From Tannockella kyphosi (GTDB taxonomy: Bacteria > Bacillota_I > Bacilli_A > Erysipelotrichales > Coprobacillaceae): a DNA stretch of 32,000 nucleotides. The notes under the pieces are model-generated. The model made no database searches. It worked only from the letters and a program-made list of their open reading frames with translations, and had not been told where the DNA came from. Below, piece after piece: positions 755 through 13,792 of the stretch. The stretch is from contig NZ_CP088239.1 in assembly GCF_021054785.1 (NCBI RefSeq), positions 180,001 to 212,000 on the forward strand. The letters are read 5' to 3'. Every line of letters begins with the position of its first letter. The first letter of the stretch is position 1. Made by a program: the position numbers and the translations under genes.

Positions 755-790
755 TATAAAAACGGGAAAATAATGGAAGTAGGAGAGGTT

Positions 791-2299
791 ATGGGGAAAA
801 AGAAAAAAAGTATCTTAATAGTAATATTGGTTGTACTAGTGGCAGCAGGAGCTTGTGCTGGCTATGTGTACTGGAAAACACCAACATTACATGCATTAGA
901 AGACACAGTGTATGTAGAATATGGACAAGAGGTTTCTATTGAATTAGAAGATTATATAGACTTGGCTTATGTAAGTGATGCAACTTACCAAGACATGAAA
1001 GAAAATTGTGTTATTTCACATAACTTTAGTGATATTACAAATCCAACAACTGGTGTATATGCATTATACTTTGCGTATGACAGTGAATTGTTACATATTA
1101 ATATTGTAGTTAGTGATACTACTGCACCAACATTTGATGATGTGCTAGCGTATGTCGAAATATTTGGGAAAGTAGATATTGAAGAAGATATCTTAGCAAA
1201 CTTCTCATGTACAGACCAAAGTCAAGTATCTCTTTCATTAGATGATAGTGAAGTAGACTACTCACAAATTGGGGAACAAACAGCATCTATTATTGCAACA
1301 GATAGTGCAGGGAATCATGCTAGTTATGAAATTACATTAAATATAACCAAAGAGATAACTTCTATTACCTATGAAAGTGAAGCTATGTATGTAGGTGATA
1401 CGTTCACTTTTTCACCTACTATAGGCCAAGATGTAACCTATCAATCAAGCGATCAAGATATAGTTGTGATTGATTCTAAAGGACTAGTGACAGCAGTTAC
1501 TTCTGGTAAAGCAACAGTTACTGTTTCTACAGGTGATATTACTGCAAAATGTGAAATAGAAGTAGTTTCTTCTTTGTCACCAGATGAGGCAGCATACGAT
1601 AGTACAAATAGCGATTTTGAAGAGGAAGAAGTAGAAGAGGAAGAAGAACAAGAAGTAGAAGAAGAACAAGAAGAGGAAAGCGAAGATAGCAGTGAGTCAT
1701 CAGATAGTTCATCAAGTAACTCAAGTTCATCTAGCAGTTCGAGTTCATCAAGCAGTTCAAGTTCATCAAGTAACTCTAGTTCATCAAATAGTTCAAGTTC
1801 ATCAAGTGATTCAAGTTCATCAAGTGATTCAAGTTCATCAAGCGACTCAAGTTCATCTAGCAGTTCGAGTTCATCAAGTGATTCAAGTTCATCAAGTGAC
1901 TCAAACTTAACAGATGGTACAGGGGCAGTTATTTCTTCAGACACACTAGCTTTAGTTAACGAAGAACGTGCAGCGCTTGGGTTGAGTGCATTAACATATA
2001 AAGCAGCTTTAGGTGAAGCAGCAAAAATTCGTGCCAAAGAAGCAAGCTCTACTTGGAGTCATACTCGTCCAGATGGGTCGAAAGCAAGTACGGTTTATCC
2101 AGCATCTTCTTCAGGGGGATATTTTGGAGAGTGTCTAGCAAGAGGGCAAACTAGTGCTTCACAAGTAGTAGTAAGTTGGTCTAATTCAGAAACGCATTGG
2201 GATGCGTTAATGAGTGATAAATATACTTATTGTGCAATTGCGTATTATATAGGTGCTGATGGATTATATTATTGGTCAGCCATTTTATCAAATTATTAA
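791..2299 (+). CDS. membrane-anchored surface protein: Ig-like (DUF5011-like) modules, Big_2 domain, Glu-rich/Ser-rich linker, C-terminal CAP/SCP (YkwD-like) domain
   Basis: The ORF track starts at 773, but GGAGAGG lies just upstream of the ATG at 791 (MGKKKKSILIVILVVLVAAGA is an N-terminal TM anchor). Ig-like signature: DTTAPTF...VDYSQIGEQTASIIATDSAGN. Big_2-like: VGDTFTFSPTIGQDVTYQSSDQDIVVIDSKGLVTAVTSGKATVTV. CAP-like C-terminus: LVNEERAALGLSALTY...AKIRAKE...SHTRPDG...GECLARGQTSASQVVVSWSNSETHWDALM. Confidence 0.8.
   Translation: MGKKKKSILIVILVVLVAAGACAGYVYWKTPTLHALEDTVYVEYGQEVSIELEDYIDLAYVSDATYQDMKENCVISHNFSDITNPTTGVYALYFAYDSELLHINIVVSDTTAPTFDDVLAYVEIFGKVDIEEDILANFSCTDQSQVSLSLDDSEVDYSQIGEQTASIIATDSAGNHASYEITLNITKEITSITYESEAMYVGDTFTFSPTIGQDVTYQSSDQDIVVIDSKGLVTAVTSGKATVTVSTGDITAKCEIEVVSSLSPDEAAYDSTNSDFEEEEVEEEEEQEVEEEQEEESEDSSESSDSSSSNSSSSSSSSSSSSSSSSSNSSSSNSSSSSSDSSSSSDSSSSSDSSSSSSSSSSSDSSSSSDSNLTDGTGAVISSDTLALVNEERAALGLSALTYKAALGEAAKIRAKEASSTWSHTRPDGSKASTVYPASSSGGYFGECLARGQTSASQVVVSWSNSETHWDALMSDKYTYCAIAYYIGADGLYYWSAILSNY
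1793..1900 (+). repeat. in-frame 18-nt tandem repeat (about 6 units, TCAAGTTCATCAAGTGAT = SSSSSD) inside the Ser-rich linker
   Basis: Units 1793-1810 and 1811-1828 are identical. Units 1829-1846 and 1883-1900 differ by 1-3 nt, and 1847-1882 is a degenerate double unit. A ~47-nt block at about 1706-1752 recurs at about 1831-1878. A GAA/GAG-rich acidic tract starts near 1613. Confidence 0.85.
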
Positions 2300-2304
2300 A
2301 ATAG

Positions 2305-2336
2305 AATAGGTAGATAGTATCTACCTATTTTCTTAT
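2305..2336 (+). terminator. rho-independent terminator after first CAP gene
   Basis: AATAGGTAGAT (2305-2315), loop AGT, ATCTACCTATT (2319-2329), followed by TTCTTAT. Confidence 0.7.
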
Positions 2337-2349
2337 GTGAGGACAAACA

Positions 2350-3549
2350 ATGAAAAATAGATTTTTAGTGATTATTATTTTTTTGTGTTTATTAGTAGCT
2401 ATTGGGACAATAGAATACTTTGTAACACCAGTAGTAGAAGCAAAAGAAGTTGTTTATGAATATGGTGATAGTGTTAGTTTAGATCCGATGAATTATCTAG
2501 ATTTAAGTGAGTTATCTGATGTTAAACAACAACAAATTATAAATAAAATAAAGATTATAGAATATAATTTTGATAATTTAGATTGTCCTAGTGTTGGAGA
2601 ATATTATTTGATTATTGATTATGATGGACAAAATATCGAGATTAAAGTAGAAGTAAAGGAAACAGAAGATTTTGAATTTATAGAATTTAAGGATTCATTA
2701 GAAGTGATAGAAGGTTGCTTTTCAAAACAAGAAGTGATAGAAAACTATGCTTGTGATAATGAAGTTCTATTTGATTTAGAAGATGATAATGTAGATTATC
2801 AAACAGCAGGTAGTTATCTAGCAAATATTGTTGCAACAAATGAACTAGGTAAAATTCTTAAAAAAGAAATAGAAATTGTTGTTATCAAACCTACCATTGA
2901 ATTAGATGTATCTAAAAAAAGCTTAGAAATAGGTGATAGTTTTTCCTTAGACCCAACAGTAACGGGAAATCAAGATATTATATATACCAGTAGTAACAGT
3001 ACAGTTGCTAGCGTTAGTTCATCAGGACAAGTTAAAGCATTAACAGCTGGTAGTGCTACTATTTATGTGGAAGCCAATGGTATTACTGAAGAATGTGCAA
3101 TAACAGTATCAAGTACTACAGCTTCTACGAATACAACAAACAACTCTAGTAGTTCTTCCTCTATAAGTGCAACTCCTTATGTTAGTAGTAGTGCTTTGGA
3201 ACTAATAAACCAAGAAAGGGTAAAACTAGGAATAACAGAGTTGACTTATAGTACAACAGCAAAGAATGTTTCTTTTGTAAGGATAAAAGAATTAGTTGAA
3301 AGCTTTTCTCATTTGCGTCCTAACGGGCAGTATGTAAGTAGTGCTTATAATGAATTAGGATATTCTATTGGTGCAACAGGAGAATGCATAGGCGTTGGTC
3401 AAACTTCAGCTAGCCAAATAGTGGCAAGATGGCAAGTATCTTCTAGTCATTGGGAAGCGTTGATGAATCCAAAATATCAATATGGAGTAGTGTCGTATTA
3501 TCAATACGACGGGAAAACATATTGGATAGCAGAATTATATGCAAATTAA
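2350..3549 (+). CDS. paralogous membrane-anchored Ig-like/Big_2/CAP-domain surface protein
   Basis: SD GTGAGGA upstream of the ATG. N-terminal TM helix (FLVIIIFLCLLVAIGTI). Big_2-like segment IGDSFSLDPTVTGNQDIIYTSSNSTVASVSSSGQVKALTAGSATIYV. Ser/Thr/Asn linker. The CAP-like C-terminus aligns with the upstream paralog (LINQERVKLGITELTY...SHLRPNG...GECIGVGQTSASQIVARWQVSSSHWEALM). Confidence 0.8.
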   Translation: MKNRFLVIIIFLCLLVAIGTIEYFVTPVVEAKEVVYEYGDSVSLDPMNYLDLSELSDVKQQQIINKIKIIEYNFDNLDCPSVGEYYLIIDYDGQNIEIKVEVKETEDFEFIEFKDSLEVIEGCFSKQEVIENYACDNEVLFDLEDDNVDYQTAGSYLANIVATNELGKILKKEIEIVVIKPTIELDVSKKSLEIGDSFSLDPTVTGNQDIIYTSSNSTVASVSSSGQVKALTAGSATIYVEANGITEECAITVSSTTASTNTTNNSSSSSSISATPYVSSSALELINQERVKLGITELTYSTTAKNVSFVRIKELVESFSHLRPNGQYVSSAYNELGYSIGATGECIGVGQTSASQIVARWQVSSSHWEALMNPKYQYGVVSYYQYDGKTYWIAELYAN

Positions 3550-10332: not shown

Positions 10333-10361
10333 TTGACAAGTTTCGCATTCTTGATTATACT
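10333..10361 (+). promoter_or_regulatory. sigma-A type promoter for the small membrane-peptide gene
   Basis: TTGACA (10333-10338), 17-nt spacer, TATACT (10356-10361). It occupies the 5' extension of the ORF-track ORF, which argues for the downstream start. Confidence 0.6.
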
Positions 10362-10401
10362 ATTAGACATACAAAATAAATGTTGTTGGGGGATAATAAG
10401 A

Positions 10402-10590
10402 ATGAAAAGAATAACAGCCATATTTATATGTGCGATGATTTTTATGATAAATGCAAAAACTGTATTTGCAGCAGAGATGCAAGCTGTTTTTGAAGTCACA
10501 CCAAATGCACCTATTTATATGTGTTTTACAATGGTAATGGCTATTGTTACAGGAATTGTAGTATATGATCGAAAGGAAAAGGATAGCTAA
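10402..10590 (+). CDS. 62-aa secreted/bitopic mini-protein (signal peptide plus C-terminal TM anchor)
   Basis: GGGGGA SD upstream of the ATG at 10402. MKRITAIFICAMIFMINAKTVFA|AE has the form of a signal peptide with an AxA-like site. It is followed by about 14 residues, a hydrophobic helix IYMCFTMVMAIVTGIVVY and a charged tail DRKEKDS. Confidence 0.55.
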   Translation: MKRITAIFICAMIFMINAKTVFAAEMQAVFEVTPNAPIYMCFTMVMAIVTGIVVYDRKEKDS

Positions 10591-10610: not shown

Positions 10611-10723
10611 ATGGTGTAAATGAGTATCGTTAAATCAGAATATGTGTTATTGTAGAGCTAGAAAAGGAGCTGATTTCTATCGCTAACACAGGGAAAAGAA
10701 GAAAATGTCGATGCATACAAACA

Positions 10724-10903
10724 ATGGATATTTACATAAAAAAAGATCGTCAAATATTGTTTGAAAAAGCAATGATCTATGACTGTGTTATTCGTGAAGA
10801 TGCTAAACAATCTACATATTATAAAATATATGGAATAGAATATGATTTATCTTGTACAGAAAATGAATTTAATGAACATTTTGTACTCATTTTAAAGCTG
10901 TAA
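10724..10903 (+). CDS. hypothetical 59-aa soluble protein (below the ORF-track cutoff)
   Basis: My own translation: MDIYIKKDRQILFEKAMIYDCVIREDAKQSTYYKIYGIEYDLSCTENEFNEHFVLILKL. A good terminator follows. There is no convincing SD before the ATG at 10724. An alternative ATG at 10705 is in the +1 frame and meets an A7 run at 10737-10743. Confidence 0.35.
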   Translation: MDIYIKKDRQILFEKAMIYDCVIREDAKQSTYYKIYGIEYDLSCTENEFNEHFVLILKL

Positions 10904-10921
10904 CTTGGTTACGCTTTTTTT
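10896..10921 (+). terminator. rho-independent terminator
   Basis: AGC-t-GTAAC (10896-10904), loop TTG, GTTAC-GCT (10908-10915), then a run of 7 T. Confidence 0.65.
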
Positions 10922-10933
10922 ATTGAGAGGAGT

Positions 10934-10962
10934 TTGTTATTTTTGGATAGCTATGTTATAAT
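10934..10962 (+). promoter_or_regulatory. extended -10 sigma-A promoter for the degenerate P-type ATPase gene
   Basis: TTGTTA (10934-10939), 17-nt spacer, TGt-TATAAT (10954-10962). It overlaps the ORF-track TTG start, so the real start is downstream. Confidence 0.6.
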
Positions 10963-10990
10963 GTCGCATATGGCAAAAGAGGAGAAATGT

Positions 10991-12928
10991 ATGAATAAAG
11001 ATTTCTATATTGGAGATATCAAATCAGATGAAGATATCAATAACTTATCAATTGCTCTTGTAGAGTTAGAAGAGGTTTCACGTATGAAAATACATGGATC
11101 AGCTATCTCTTTTACGTGTGCTGATTTAACACATGTTCAAGCAGTAGTTTGTTCTATTGATAGTGAATTAATTTTACATGAAATAATAAATGAAAAAAGA
11201 AGAGTTTATAAAAATAATGGGGAAGAAAAGGAAATGATTTTCCTTTTTAAGAATCTTTCTAATATAAATGAAGCAACAGAGATAGAGGATATTTTATCAA
11301 AGTATGCTATGTATCAAGATGTTACAGTTGATTTTCCTAATAAATTATTAACACTTACTACAAGTGATAAAATAGCTTTAACTAGATTAAATCGTATTGT
11401 TGATAAAGTAAATCCTGATATTGATGTCGAAGAATGGAAAAAGCCTTTCCGTTCCCAAGATATTTTTCAAGAAAAATACATGGGAAGATATTTAAAAATA
11501 AGTGTCTTATTAGTTTGTGCTTCTTTAGGGGTTGTAACAACATATCAAAGTTCTTTGATACCAATGATTGGGTGGTTGGTTGCTATTCTTATTTGTTTAG
11601 AAGGTATTTTGAAGAATGCAAAAAGAGATTTATCTTTAAAGAATTATATGACTGAAAATACATTAATTATATTGGCTTGTTTTTTTGGATGGGCATATGG
11701 AGCTTATGCAGAAACGTTACTTGTTGGTTTGATTTATCAATATGGAGACAAATTATATGTACATTTTGTTTCTATATTCCTTGCTAAAATAGATGCTACA
11801 GTTAGTGTTCCTAAATTTGGTAAAAAGTATGATAAAGAAAAGGGTTATGTTTTAACACCTTTAGAAGAATTTGATATTGGTGATATGTTGGTTGTTGAAA
11901 ATGGAGATGTTGTTTTATTAGGTGGAAGTATTCATGTAGGAACAAGTTCGATTGATACATTTGCAATTGATGGTAGTGAAGTAGTAACGGAAGTTAGTAT
12001 TGGAGATGCGATAAGTAGTGGTTCTTTAAACAAAGGTGATACACTTATTGTTTGGGTTAGTGCTTTAGCTTCACAAAATGTATTCTCTAAGTTATTAGAT
12101 ATTGCTGCTTCTTCACCAACTTATGAATCAAAAACACAAAGAATGATGGAAAAAGTAGCAAAGTATACAATGATTACTTTTGTGATACTTGCTTTAGTTA
12201 CAGGAATTGTTTTCCCAATAGTTGATTTTGAATTATACCATGAATACTTATATGTTGCAGCGATTGTATTGACGGTAGCTAGTACATATGCATATAAACA
12301 AGTAGCGTCTTTAGGTGTTTTAGCCGGTGTGGCTAAATCATTTAAAGAGGGAATTATTATTAAAGAAAATAGTGGATTAGATTCTTTACGTTCTTGTGCG
12401 ACTATTGTATATGATCGTTTTGATGGGGTGGAAGTAACAGAAGAAGAATTACTATTATTTGATCAATTGAAACAATCAGGGAAAGATATTATTATCTTTA
12501 ATGATGGTCCCGTTGATTTAATTAATGATCAACATGTTATTTATAATGATTTAACAGTTGTTCAAAAGAAATCAGTAATGGATGAAGCAATGGCACCAAT
12601 AGCTTATATTGGTGATACTGCCAAAGATGTAGAATTACTTCAAAAAGCATATGTAGGTATTGCTAGAGGTGGTTTACATGATCCAATAGTGACTAAAAAT
12701 AGTGATATTTTAATTGCAAAAAGTGAACTTTCTACAATTTATCAAATGTTAAAAATTGCTAAAAAACAAAAAGCAATTCAATATGAAAATACAATTATTA
12801 GTATTTGTAGTAATCTTTTATTAGTGTTATCAGCATTCTCTTTAACAATGCCTTGGATTGTGGCGGCGTTAGTTTATATGTTAACAATTGTAGTGTTCTT
12901 ATTAAATACAACTAGAATATTAAAATAG
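10991..12928 (+). CDS. P1B-type (heavy-metal) ATPase homolog with all catalytic/ion-binding motifs degenerate and no N domain (putative pseudo-enzyme)
   Basis: AGAGGAG lies 7 nt before the ATG at 10991. The protein is collinear with CopA/ZntA-type pumps: two HMA-like modules without CxxC, 8 predicted TM helices, and an actuator segment (GDMLVVENGDVVLLGGSIHVGTSSIDTFAIDGSEVVTEV). TM6 through the P domain reads IVLTVASTYAYKQVASLGVLAGVAKSFKEGIIIKENSGLDSLRSCATIVYDRFDGV, and the hinge reads IAYIGDTAKDVELLQKAYVGIA. Motif replacements: TGES to DGSE, CPC to AST, DKTGT to DRFDG, GDGxND to GDTAKD. Confidence 0.75.
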   Translation: MNKDFYIGDIKSDEDINNLSIALVELEEVSRMKIHGSAISFTCADLTHVQAVVCSIDSELILHEIINEKRRVYKNNGEEKEMIFLFKNLSNINEATEIEDILSKYAMYQDVTVDFPNKLLTLTTSDKIALTRLNRIVDKVNPDIDVEEWKKPFRSQDIFQEKYMGRYLKISVLLVCASLGVVTTYQSSLIPMIGWLVAILICLEGILKNAKRDLSLKNYMTENTLIILACFFGWAYGAYAETLLVGLIYQYGDKLYVHFVSIFLAKIDATVSVPKFGKKYDKEKGYVLTPLEEFDIGDMLVVENGDVVLLGGSIHVGTSSIDTFAIDGSEVVTEVSIGDAISSGSLNKGDTLIVWVSALASQNVFSKLLDIAASSPTYESKTQRMMEKVAKYTMITFVILALVTGIVFPIVDFELYHEYLYVAAIVLTVASTYAYKQVASLGVLAGVAKSFKEGIIIKENSGLDSLRSCATIVYDRFDGVEVTEEELLLFDQLKQSGKDIIIFNDGPVDLINDQHVIYNDLTVVQKKSVMDEAMAPIAYIGDTAKDVELLQKAYVGIARGGLHDPIVTKNSDILIAKSELSTIYQMLKIAKKQKAIQYENTIISICSNLLLVLSAFSLTMPWIVAALVYMLTIVVFLLNTTRILK

Positions 12929-12952
12929 CTCACGATGGTGAGCTATTTATAT
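12926..12952 (+). terminator. hairpin overlapping the stop codon (weak terminator or processing/stability element) between the ATPase-like gene and rluA-like gene
   Basis: TAGCTCAC (12926-12933, includes the TAG stop), loop GATG, GTGAGCTA (12938-12945), then TTTATAT. The U tract is poor. Confidence 0.4.
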
Positions 12953-12964
12953 AAGGAGGAAAAA

Positions 12965-13792
12965 ATGAAATATAATGTAAAACAAGAAATGTTATTGCTT
13001 GATTTTTTAATGATTCATATGTCTCGTAAACAAGCAAAACTATATTTAAAGTATAAACAAGTTTATTGTAATCAAATGGCCAATATAACCCATGATTATG
13101 TGGTGAAGCCTGGGGATGTAGTAGAAATAAAAAAAGAACAAGCTAGCCCATTAGATATTCTATATGAAGATAATGATTGTGTTATTATTAATAAGCCTAG
13201 TGGCTTATTAAGTATGTCTGGTGGTGGAGAAAAAGAAAAGACTGCTTATCATTTAGTTAGTACTTACTTAAAAACAAAAGACAAGAATGCAAGAAACTTT
13301 ATTGTGCATCGTTTAGATAGAGATACATCAGGTATTTTATTGTTTGCTAAAAATGAAAAAATGAAAAACTTATTACAAAATGATTGGAATAACTTAGTTA
13401 TTCAAAGAGGATATATTGCAATTGTTGAAGGTAAATTAAAACAAGACAAAGGAACCATAAAAAACTATTTAGATGAATCTAAAACACAACAAGTTTACAT
13501 TACCAAAAAAGGTGGTAAATTAGCAGTAACACATTATCGTGTTTTAAAAACAAACAACAAACAAAGTATGGTAGAAGTATACTTAGATACAGGACGTAAA
13601 AACCAAATTCGTGTCCATATGCAATCTTTAGGTAACAGTATTGTTGGTGATAAGAAATATGGAGCAAACACAAACCCAATCCAAAGATTAGGTTTACATT
13701 GCCATGATTTTTTATTCACGCATCCTATTACAAAAAAGAAAATTCATATTCAATGCGATAGTCCAAAAAACTTTACTGATTTATTCAAATAA
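12965..13792 (+). CDS. RluA-family pseudouridine synthase with N-terminal S4-like module
   Basis: TAAGGAGGA upstream of the ATG at 12965 (MKYNVKQ...). Family motifs: IINKPSGLLS, HRLDRDTSGILLFAKN (catalytic Asp), DTGRKNQIRVH. Confidence 0.9.
   Translation: MKYNVKQEMLLLDFLMIHMSRKQAKLYLKYKQVYCNQMANITHDYVVKPGDVVEIKKEQASPLDILYEDNDCVIINKPSGLLSMSGGGEKEKTAYHLVSTYLKTKDKNARNFIVHRLDRDTSGILLFAKNEKMKNLLQNDWNNLVIQRGYIAIVEGKLKQDKGTIKNYLDESKTQQVYITKKGGKLAVTHYRVLKTNNKQSMVEVYLDTGRKNQIRVHMQSLGNSIVGDKKYGANTNPIQRLGLHCHDFLFTHPITKKKIHIQCDSPKNFTDLFK

Follow-up and report, generated by a model that had tools for sequence, protein, structure and literature searches.

What becomes of a metal pump that has lost the domain with which it binds ATP, and why would a bacterial lineage keep it? 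The question is raised by a gene of Tannockella kyphosi, a fish-gut member of Coprobacillaceae (order Erysipelotrichales), in a stretch of 32,000 nucleotides (nt; NCBI RefSeq assembly GCF_021054785.1, contig NZ_CP088239.1, positions 180,001 to 212,000 of the forward strand), hereafter called the window. An uninterrupted frame spans positions 10934-12928 on the plus strand, with 664 codons if read from the first TTG or 645 if read from the ATG at 10991, and its product (WP_249029672.1) is annotated in databases as a "P-type ATPase" or a "hypothetical protein". An initial annotation, made from the letters of the window alone, had described it as a full-length homologue of P1B-ATPases with every functional motif replaced and the nucleotide-binding (N) domain missing. 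We found that the 645-amino-acid (aa) protein is a descendant of a Cd/Zn-type P1B pump in which the chassis has been kept (a degenerate HMA domain, eight transmembrane (TM) helices, the actuator (A) fold and the phosphorylation (P) fold), the N domain has been cleanly excised, and all metal ligands (CxxC, CPC and the Lys/Asp of helices M5/M6) are gone along with the conserved TGES loop. The gene is vertically inherited and under purifying selection. The coding sequence is divided as follows, with the basis of each assignment in brackets.

10991-12928, plus strand: P1B-ATPase-derived coding sequence, 645 aa and stop (WP_249029672.1, Tannockella kyphosi)
10991-11206, plus strand: N-terminal domain 1, aa 1-72, ferredoxin-like, no CxxC (AlphaFold2 secondary structure)
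11228-11434, plus strand: N-terminal domain 2, aa 80-148, degenerate HMA domain with SNIN at the place of CxxC (hhalign and AlphaFold2 topology)
11453-11800, plus strand: TM helices MA, MB, M1 and M2, aa 155-270 (AlphaFold2; conservation; ZntA alignment)
11801-12106, plus strand: A domain, aa 271-372 (Pfam; alignment)
12122-12346, plus strand: TM helices M3 and M4, aa 378-452 (AlphaFold2)
12347-12730, plus strand: cap-less, remodelled P domain, aa 453-580 (conservation; motifs; alignment)
12731-12925, plus strand: TM helices M5 and M6, aa 581-645, without the Lys/Asp metal ligands of Zn/Cd pumps (AlphaFold2; alignment)

Collinear homology to P1B pumps, as first proposed, was recovered by profile, sequence and structure searches. 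The Pfam model E1-E2_ATPase (PF00122) matched the protein above its cut-off at 9.1e-20, and the NCBIfam models ATPase-IB_hvy (TIGR01525; 2e-41, 142.5 bits) and ATPase-IB2_Cd (TIGR01512; 4.8e-41, 141 bits) matched it far below their curated cut-offs of 346 and 313.5 bits, respectively; the Cu-type model TIGR01511 scored 79 bits, against 141-142 bits for the Cd and heavy-metal models. Among PDB sequences, ZntA (4umv) was matched at 1.1e-16, as were CopA and CadA, and the ZntA alignment fell into two blocks (residues 190-479 of the query on ZntA 151-440, and 534-644 on ZntA 620-729). Neither the Pfam HMA model nor the Hydrolase/HAD models matched the 645-aa protein (PF00702 gave nothing at E<=1), and motif IV alone was seen, weakly, by the TIGR01494 and serB models. 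An AlphaFold2 model built from 23 family sequences, with a mean predicted local distance difference test score (pLDDT) of 81, began with two domains of beta-alpha-beta-beta-alpha-beta topology (aa 3-72 and 80-148). Beyond these it had eight TM helices, an A domain spanning aa 276-372 and, at aa 453-580, a P domain of Rossmann-like fold, in agreement with the eight helices, actuator and P domain initially predicted. In this model helix M4 is broken or kinked at the position of AST, and strand 1 of the P domain (residues 471-475) ends at Asp475 and joins the next helix directly. The top Foldseek matches of the model in the PDB were ATP7B, ZntA, CopA and CadA, with the best E-values for ATP7B and a TM-score of 0.55 to CopA (7r0g).

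Two HMA-like modules had been proposed at the N terminus, of which the second stood: hhalign relates aa 80-148 to the HMA domain of Cd-type pumps (probability 96.7%, E 3.2e-10), a homology recovered by profile-profile comparison only, a profile of the N-terminal 150 aa having found nothing relevant among PDB sequences. Domain 1 gave no sequence-level HMA signal in Pfam, the PDB profile search or hhalign, and is HMA-like by predicted topology only. As had been noted, CxxC is absent from both: FKNLSNINEATEIEDIL begins at aa 86, the beta1-alpha1 loop of the HMA domain reads NLSNIN instead of CxxC, and no orthologue carried a Cys pair there. A conserved linker, KPF(R/K)SQDxF, precedes helix MA, and an invariant Glu241 in the MA/MB/M1/M2 segment aligns with ZntA Glu202.

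The extent of the loss was clearest in the P domain, where Asp475 and Asp542 are 67 residues apart, compared with 192 for their counterparts in ZntA; the approximately 125 absent residues match the N domain, whose former place of insertion is occupied by a VEVTEEE linker. The same gap was found in every family member. The positions given earlier for the substituted motifs all translated correctly: the actuator TGES is replaced by DGSE (aa 327; 11969-11980), the CPC of M4 by AST (aa 430; 12278-12286), DKTGT by DRFDG with the Asp alone retained (aa 475-479; 12413-12427), and GDGxND by GDTAKD (aa 541; 12611-12628). Among orthologues the place of TGES is variable (DGSE, TGKE, DGNA, NGSK, NTSEY and others), as is that of CPC (AST, SGT, AGT, ACS, SGA), and variable residues, small or hydrophobic, stand where Zn/Cd pumps have the M5 Lys and M6 Asp. 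Because the N domain, the metal ligands and a conserved TGES are lost, the protein cannot be an ATP-driven metal pump, and the absence of an N domain also rules out ATP binding of the P-type kind.

Within the HAD superfamily, to which P-type ATPases belong, the N domain of these pumps corresponds to the cap inserted between motifs I and II. We computed conservation per column over 47 orthologues and counted a column as near-invariant if it was at least 95% conserved. By this measure 29-32% of P-domain columns were near-invariant; the two N-terminal domains reached 14% and 8%, the A domain 7% and the TM segments 2-7%. The invariant residues fall on the four HAD active-site loops: motif I (Y-D475-R-F-D-G, invariant in the family, with Asp478 at motif I +3), motif II (F-N504-D-G-P, or FNDGP, aa 503-507), motif III (K526) and motif IV (G-D542-x-x-K-D546), and are joined by R559-G-G (559-561) and S-D572 (571-572). 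The substituted motifs are thus themselves conserved: DRFDG, FNDGP and GDxxKD were found in 64-66 of the 66 family clusters at a constant spacing of 66-68 aa. Asp475, Arg476, Lys526, Asp542, Asp546, RGG and Asp572 were kept in every member, including the most divergent one (P0129, approximately 20% identity), and Lys526, Asp542 and Asp546 are common to the family and canonical pumps. By analogy with the HAD superfamily, we take Asp475 to be the nucleophile, Lys526 the phosphate-binding Lys, and Asp542 and Asp546 the Mg2+ ligands. The initial statement that every catalytic motif is replaced is therefore right for the motif strings and wrong for this HAD quartet, which is invariant.

A search of 5.8 billion proteins returned 67 further clusters at 35-71% identity, 645-661 aa long except for four shorter ones (441-607 aa), and with E1-E2_ATPase as the sole domain in all. 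A gap in E-value from 1e-113 to 1e-25 parts the family from canonical pumps bearing HMA and Hydrolase domains. The family is narrow, as in a hidden Markov model search of 1.84 billion representatives at 50% identity only about nine full-length family members exceeded the background of canonical pumps. With one genome scanned per GTDB species, the gene was present in 46 species-level genomes of Coprobacillaceae, belonging to Thomasclavelia, Faecalibacillus, Longibaculum, Massilimicrobiota, Stoquefichus, Coprobacillus and Erysipelatoclostridium, and it was both present and syntenic in all sampled genera of the family. Of 44 complete copies, 43 were intact and full length, and 2 more were cut by contig ends. 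We estimated the ratio of nonsynonymous to synonymous substitution rates (dN/dS) by the Nei-Gojobori method, using only pairs with unsaturated dS (0.16-0.8); distant pairs saturate near a dS of 1. The pump-like gene gave values of 0.03-0.16, on a par with 0.04-0.13 for the RluA-family synthase and 0.06-0.12 for the M29 peptidase in the same genome pairs; prfC gave 0.02-0.03 there. Between the window and its closest relative (71% identity) dN was 0.20 and dS 0.98, which puts omega at no more than about 0.2.

The gene also keeps its place. The syntenic order is M29 peptidase, prfC, a small open reading frame (ORF), in some genomes a GNAT acetyltransferase, the pump-like gene, in some genomes a YbjQ or glycerate kinase gene, the RluA-family pseudouridine synthase and infC-rpmI-rplT, and this synteny is conserved from 30% to 54% GC. 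One divergent member with a DRIDD motif (P0124, on a contig of 45% GC) sits in the same slot and overlaps the start of the RluA-family gene. Another (P0129; L052:5001-6923, on a metagenome contig of 54% GC), with DRTHQ for DRFDG, CDYETD for GDxxKD and no Pfam match, has the order prfC-X-RluA and overlaps the RluA-family gene by 8 nt. As such divergent members hold the same slot, the gene must be old and vertically inherited. An ancestral intact pump was not found in situ when the contexts of the closest canonical pumps (P0069 and P0070) were inspected.

Directly upstream of the pump-like gene lies a conserved small partner gene that the initial annotation had missed.

10679-10903, plus strand: orphan small gene "small83", approximately 75 aa here (clustering of all ORFs from 51 loci)

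A homologue was directly 5' of the pump-like gene in 46 of the 51 loci, including loci without prfC upstream, either at a distance of -17 to approximately +90 nt or with the GNAT gene between. Its products are approximately 75-83 aa long across loci and form 149 clusters, limited to the same lineage as the pump-like gene; they match no Pfam or NCBIfam model, and their invariant residues include four Cys (CRC...C...SC). The dN/dS of the small gene was 0.055-0.21. An AlphaFold2 model (pLDDT 84) predicts a small barrel, all-beta and SH3-like, for which Foldseek found no significant match in the PDB (best E 0.11, SH3-like). The lineage of 54% GC (P0129) has no small gene, and has lost the side residues of the motifs (RFDG, FNDGP, GDxxKD) while keeping the Asp, Lys, Asp and Asp.

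What, then, does the protein do? Judging from these conservation patterns, we propose, with a probability of roughly 0.5, that the pocket has kept the ability to bind Mg2+ and a phosphoryl group, and that the protein serves as an ATP-independent switch or phosphatase built on a pump chassis, with the small four-Cys protein as its partner. The P domain would be the part under selection, turned into a cap-less HAD-type pocket that keeps Asp475, Lys526 and Asp542/Asp546 and is framed by new invariant residues (Arg476, Phe477, Asp478, Asn504, Lys545 and Arg559). Cap-less HAD enzymes have open pockets and macromolecular substrates, and P-type pumps can take phosphate at the P domain from inorganic phosphate (Pi) or acetyl phosphate. 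The open pocket, having bound Mg2+ and a phosphoryl group, might thus be a switch whose aspartyl phosphate comes from a small phosphodonor or Pi, or else a phosphatase with a bulky substrate. The membrane chassis would act as anchor and conformational transducer, the co-conserved upstream four-Cys protein would be the probable partner, and the pump-like gene and the RluA-type synthase would be expressed from one operon. In its most specific form, the protein would be a P-type "ATPase" without ATP, that is, a cap-less aspartyl-phosphate device of the membrane in which Asp475 receives its phosphate from a phosphorylated macromolecule, Pi or a small donor, the resulting state is passed on through the A domain and TM helices, and the small protein is regulator or substrate; we regard this version as speculative and somewhat doubtful.

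Several observations weigh against a pocket with HAD chemistry and a functional operon around it. The residue at motif I +2 is Phe477, neither the Asp of phosphatases nor the Thr of P-type pumps, and Asn504 occupies the place of the motif II Ser/Thr (the Thr of TGD), both of which are unusual for HAD chemistry; the most divergent member, P0129, has a Ser here (ISDTQ). No Pfam Hydrolase/HAD profile detects the P domain. The needs of folding or of a protein-protein interface could explain the pocket residues equally well, no coherent functional hint comes from the variable accessory genes (GNAT, YbjQ and glycerate kinase), and the operon link to RluA may be merely a conserved gene order among housekeeping genes.

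The change of four of the five DKTGT residues, the unconserved TGES place and the absence of a HAD/Hydrolase profile match would also suit a true pseudoenzyme or scaffold, which carries out no chemistry and uses the face of its P domain and the degenerate HMA domain as interfaces, for example with the four-Cys protein, to act as an anchor, regulator or sensor. The co-conservation of the small partner gene and the poor conservation of the TM segments, as for a mere anchor, point the same way, and we consider such a scaffold a serious possibility, if probably not the correct one. It is less easily reconciled with the fact that conservation sits exactly on the four HAD active-site loops and takes in the Asp nucleophile, the Lys and both Asp ligands of Mg2+, a set of residues that a pure interface would not need and that survives at 20% identity and in the lineage without the small partner. 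A maintained pseudo-enzyme had been the initial interpretation; maintenance is borne out by the intact copies and the dN/dS of 0.03-0.16, but the absence of chemistry is not established, given the invariant HAD quartet.

That the protein is still a transporter, its TM core moving a substrate passively or powered in trans by a nucleotide-binding partner such as a neighbouring kinase-like protein, is improbable. The model does predict the full eight-helix P1B membrane core with a kink in M4, Glu241, aligned with the entry-site Glu202 of ZntA, is invariant, and a gene of the glycerate kinase family overlaps the pump-like gene in approximately 18 loci; however, all known ligand positions (CPC, M5 Lys and M6 Asp) are now variable small or hydrophobic residues in the least conserved regions of the protein, neither the window's clade nor Thomasclavelia has the kinase gene, and no N-domain-like gene is conserved nearby. 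Finally, a recent pseudogene, or an N domain deleted by an assembly or sequencing error, would account for the loss of all signature motifs and has sporadic parallels in N-domain-less pump copies elsewhere (P0156 and P0266), but both readings are refuted by the intact copies throughout the family and their low dN/dS, with the identical deletion and replacement motifs recurring in 66 protein clusters and 46 independent genomes that many projects contributed, synteny kept across the whole range of GC, and no version with intact DKTGT, CPC and N domain among close relatives (66 family clusters and 46 genome loci), which leaves them practically no probability.

The best sequence and profile matches of the window protein are the Zn/Cd/Pb P1B pumps (ZntA and CadA; 4UMV/4UMW and 7QBZ; TIGR01525/TIGR01512), with which it shares the order of HMA domain, eight TM helices, A domain and P domain, the same predicted fold, Glu241 (ZntA Glu202), the nucleophile Asp, the motif III Lys, the two motif IV Asp and a later Asp of AADIVL type. 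In contrast to ZntA and CadA, it has no N domain, DKTGT, TGES, CPC, M5 Lys, M6 Asp or CxxC, and it lies outside any metal-resistance operon, whereas the closest canonical pumps (P0069 and P0070) are in ordinary ArsR/HMA operons, away from the prfC-RluA locus. Cu-type P1B pumps (CopA, 7R0G/3RFU; ATP7B, 7SI3/7SI6) show the highest structural similarity to the model and a lower sequence similarity than the Cd/Zn class, and relative to them the losses are the same. As it fails on DKTGT, the N domain, TGE, CPC, CxxC and the curated cut-offs, we do not file it as a P1B-ATPase; it is a derivative of a P1B-ATPase and not a P1B-ATPase proper.

Cap-less (C0) HAD phosphatases include the FCP/SCP phosphatases of the C-terminal domain (CTD), the phosphatase domain of polynucleotide kinase, and MDP-1. 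These presumably resemble the P domain of the window protein in their Rossmann-like core, the lack of a cap between motifs I and II, the Asp, the Lys and an acidic motif IV. They differ in motif I, which is DRFDG here and not DxDx(T/V), and in that the window's pocket is embedded in a pump chassis with an A domain and eight TM helices; beyond the shared superfamily there is no detectable sequence relationship. A P domain that likewise closes without an N domain occurs in P0156 (L058:4001-5776) and P0266 (L059:2702-4282, and L060), of which P0266 keeps DKTGT, TGES and CPC, and P0156 keeps CxxC and CPC and has EKNST for DKTGT. Both belong to other lineages, where they occupy pump operons of the usual ArsR- or HMA-linked type on one to three metagenome contigs. 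Their appearance is that of recent lesions, not of a conserved family, and N-domain loss may recur sporadically.

Among eukaryotes, the apicomplexan guanylyl cyclase GC-alpha carries a fused P4-ATPase-like module, which reportedly keeps its N domain. This module, of P4 type, is unrelated to the window protein in sequence and context. According to the title of a report on GC-alpha, the activity of its ATPase domain is essential (PMC7858053), which, as far as that title goes, provides a precedent for a P-type chassis used beyond classical ion pumping. A 2023 survey of open questions presents the catalytic machinery of P-type ATPases as the cytosolic A, P and N domains and does not mention inactive or N-domain-less members (PMC10654040). 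We found no description of an N-domain-less or inactive family of bacterial P-type ATPases in the full-text literature, in which coverage of subscription journals is incomplete.

An entire bacterial family has therefore long retained a pump derivative without an N domain or metal sites and with its phosphorylation motif rewritten, the long retention following from a divergence that reaches approximately 20% identity and from genome GC contents of 30% to 54%. The family offers a natural experiment on what the P/A/TM core is capable of without nucleotide binding, and could represent a new HAD-type activity or switch, anchored in the membrane of such abundant gut commensals as Thomasclavelia, Faecalibacillus, Massilimicrobiota and Coprobacillus. 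If the protein were indeed an ATP-independent device, no earlier member of the superfamily would be known to lack the N domain and yet be maintained by selection, and bacteria would have put the pump fold to a new use, in signalling or as an enzyme. Genome-based predictions of metal-efflux capacity should leave such proteins out of the count.

The remaining signals around the pump-like gene are the following.

10900-10921, plus strand: weak hairpin GTAAC-TTG-GTTAC followed by GCTTTTTTT, 3' of the small gene (read from the sequence; under the threshold of the terminator scan)
10934-10962, plus strand: promoter-like site, TTGTTA, 17-nt spacer, TATAAT, with a TG (extended -10) (pattern match only)
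10979-10984, plus strand: Shine-Dalgarno sequence GAGGAG, 6 nt before ATG 10991
12928-12943, plus strand: short hairpin GCTCAC-GATG-GTGAGC without a T-run, lying between the pump-like and RluA-family genes (not called by the terminator scan)
12953-12959, plus strand: Shine-Dalgarno sequence AAGGAGG of the RluA-family gene
12965-13792, plus strand: RluA-family pseudouridine synthase (Pfam PF00849, 7.8e-35; TIGR00005, 196.9 bits, above the cut-off)

The extended -10 promoter and the Shine-Dalgarno sequence of the initial annotation are both present, the promoter as a pattern match only. The TTGTTA-17-TATAAT arrangement with its TG was also present in the closest relative (L051), and promoter-like matches were not enriched in the AT-rich DNA of the window. 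The weak hairpin and RluA-family gene described downstream were likewise there, and the suggested co-transcription fits an adjacency that is universal and often overlapping: the RluA-family gene adjoins or overlaps the pump-like gene in 46 loci and in the most divergent lineages, and the terminator scan found nothing between the two in the window. In other genomes a YbjQ_1 gene (9 loci) or a gene of the glycerate kinase family (18 loci) stands between them, often with overlapping stop and start codons, and in Thomasclavelia-like genomes a GNAT acetyltransferase gene stands between the small gene and the pump-like gene; none of these insertions occurs in the window's clade. No canonical P1B pump is encoded within the 32-kb window, and no Rfam RNA family was found anywhere in it.

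The small gene appears to use an AUC or AUU start codon in over half of the surveyed species. In the window its probable start is the non-AUG codon ATC at 10679, with a Shine-Dalgarno-like AAAAGGAG at 10662-10669, and the first ATG follows at 10724; neither here nor in L051, L054 or L005 was there an in-frame ATG, GTG or TTG start. Over the window, L051, L054, L005 and 44 further loci, the codon before the conserved AN.GKR..CRC N-terminus was ATG in 17 cases, GTG in 5, ATC in 17 and ATT in 9, always with a conserved Shine-Dalgarno sequence of GGAGGTG type 6-9 nt upstream, and the GTG chosen by gene callers in many genomes is part of that sequence. Between the window and L051, the 16 codons preceding the first ATG differed at 8, with 6 changes synonymous and 2 conservative, and from this predominance we infer that these codons are translated.

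A broken orthologue in one genome (L026; CP139560.1, Coprobacillaceae bacterium CR2/5/TPMF4) was considered as a sign of decay and rejected, because every gene in that assembly is fragmented. Over a 14-kb stretch of it nearly every gene is split (the M29 peptidase, prfC, pump-like, PfkB, infC and FtsX genes), which suggests uncorrected indel errors in the assembly of a "complete" genome rather than biology. Upstream of the small gene, an ORF at 10333-10590 (plus strand) was considered as the conserved upstream neighbour and set aside, as it is outside the set of genes conserved across the family. It encodes 85 aa (62 aa from MKRITAIF...) with a signal-peptide-like N terminus, a C-terminal hydrophobic helix and no Pfam match; a strong promoter-like TTGACA-17-TATACT is present at 10333-10361, and L051 has a similar ORF. 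The window contains two RluA-family (PseudoU_synth_2) genes, at 76-702 and 12965-13792 on the plus strand, the former encoding 208 aa without the N-terminal extension of the latter's product. Positions 773-3549 (plus strand) hold two tandem paralogues, whose products are of secreted type and bear Big_2 Ig-like domains and CAP (cysteine-rich secretory protein) domains.

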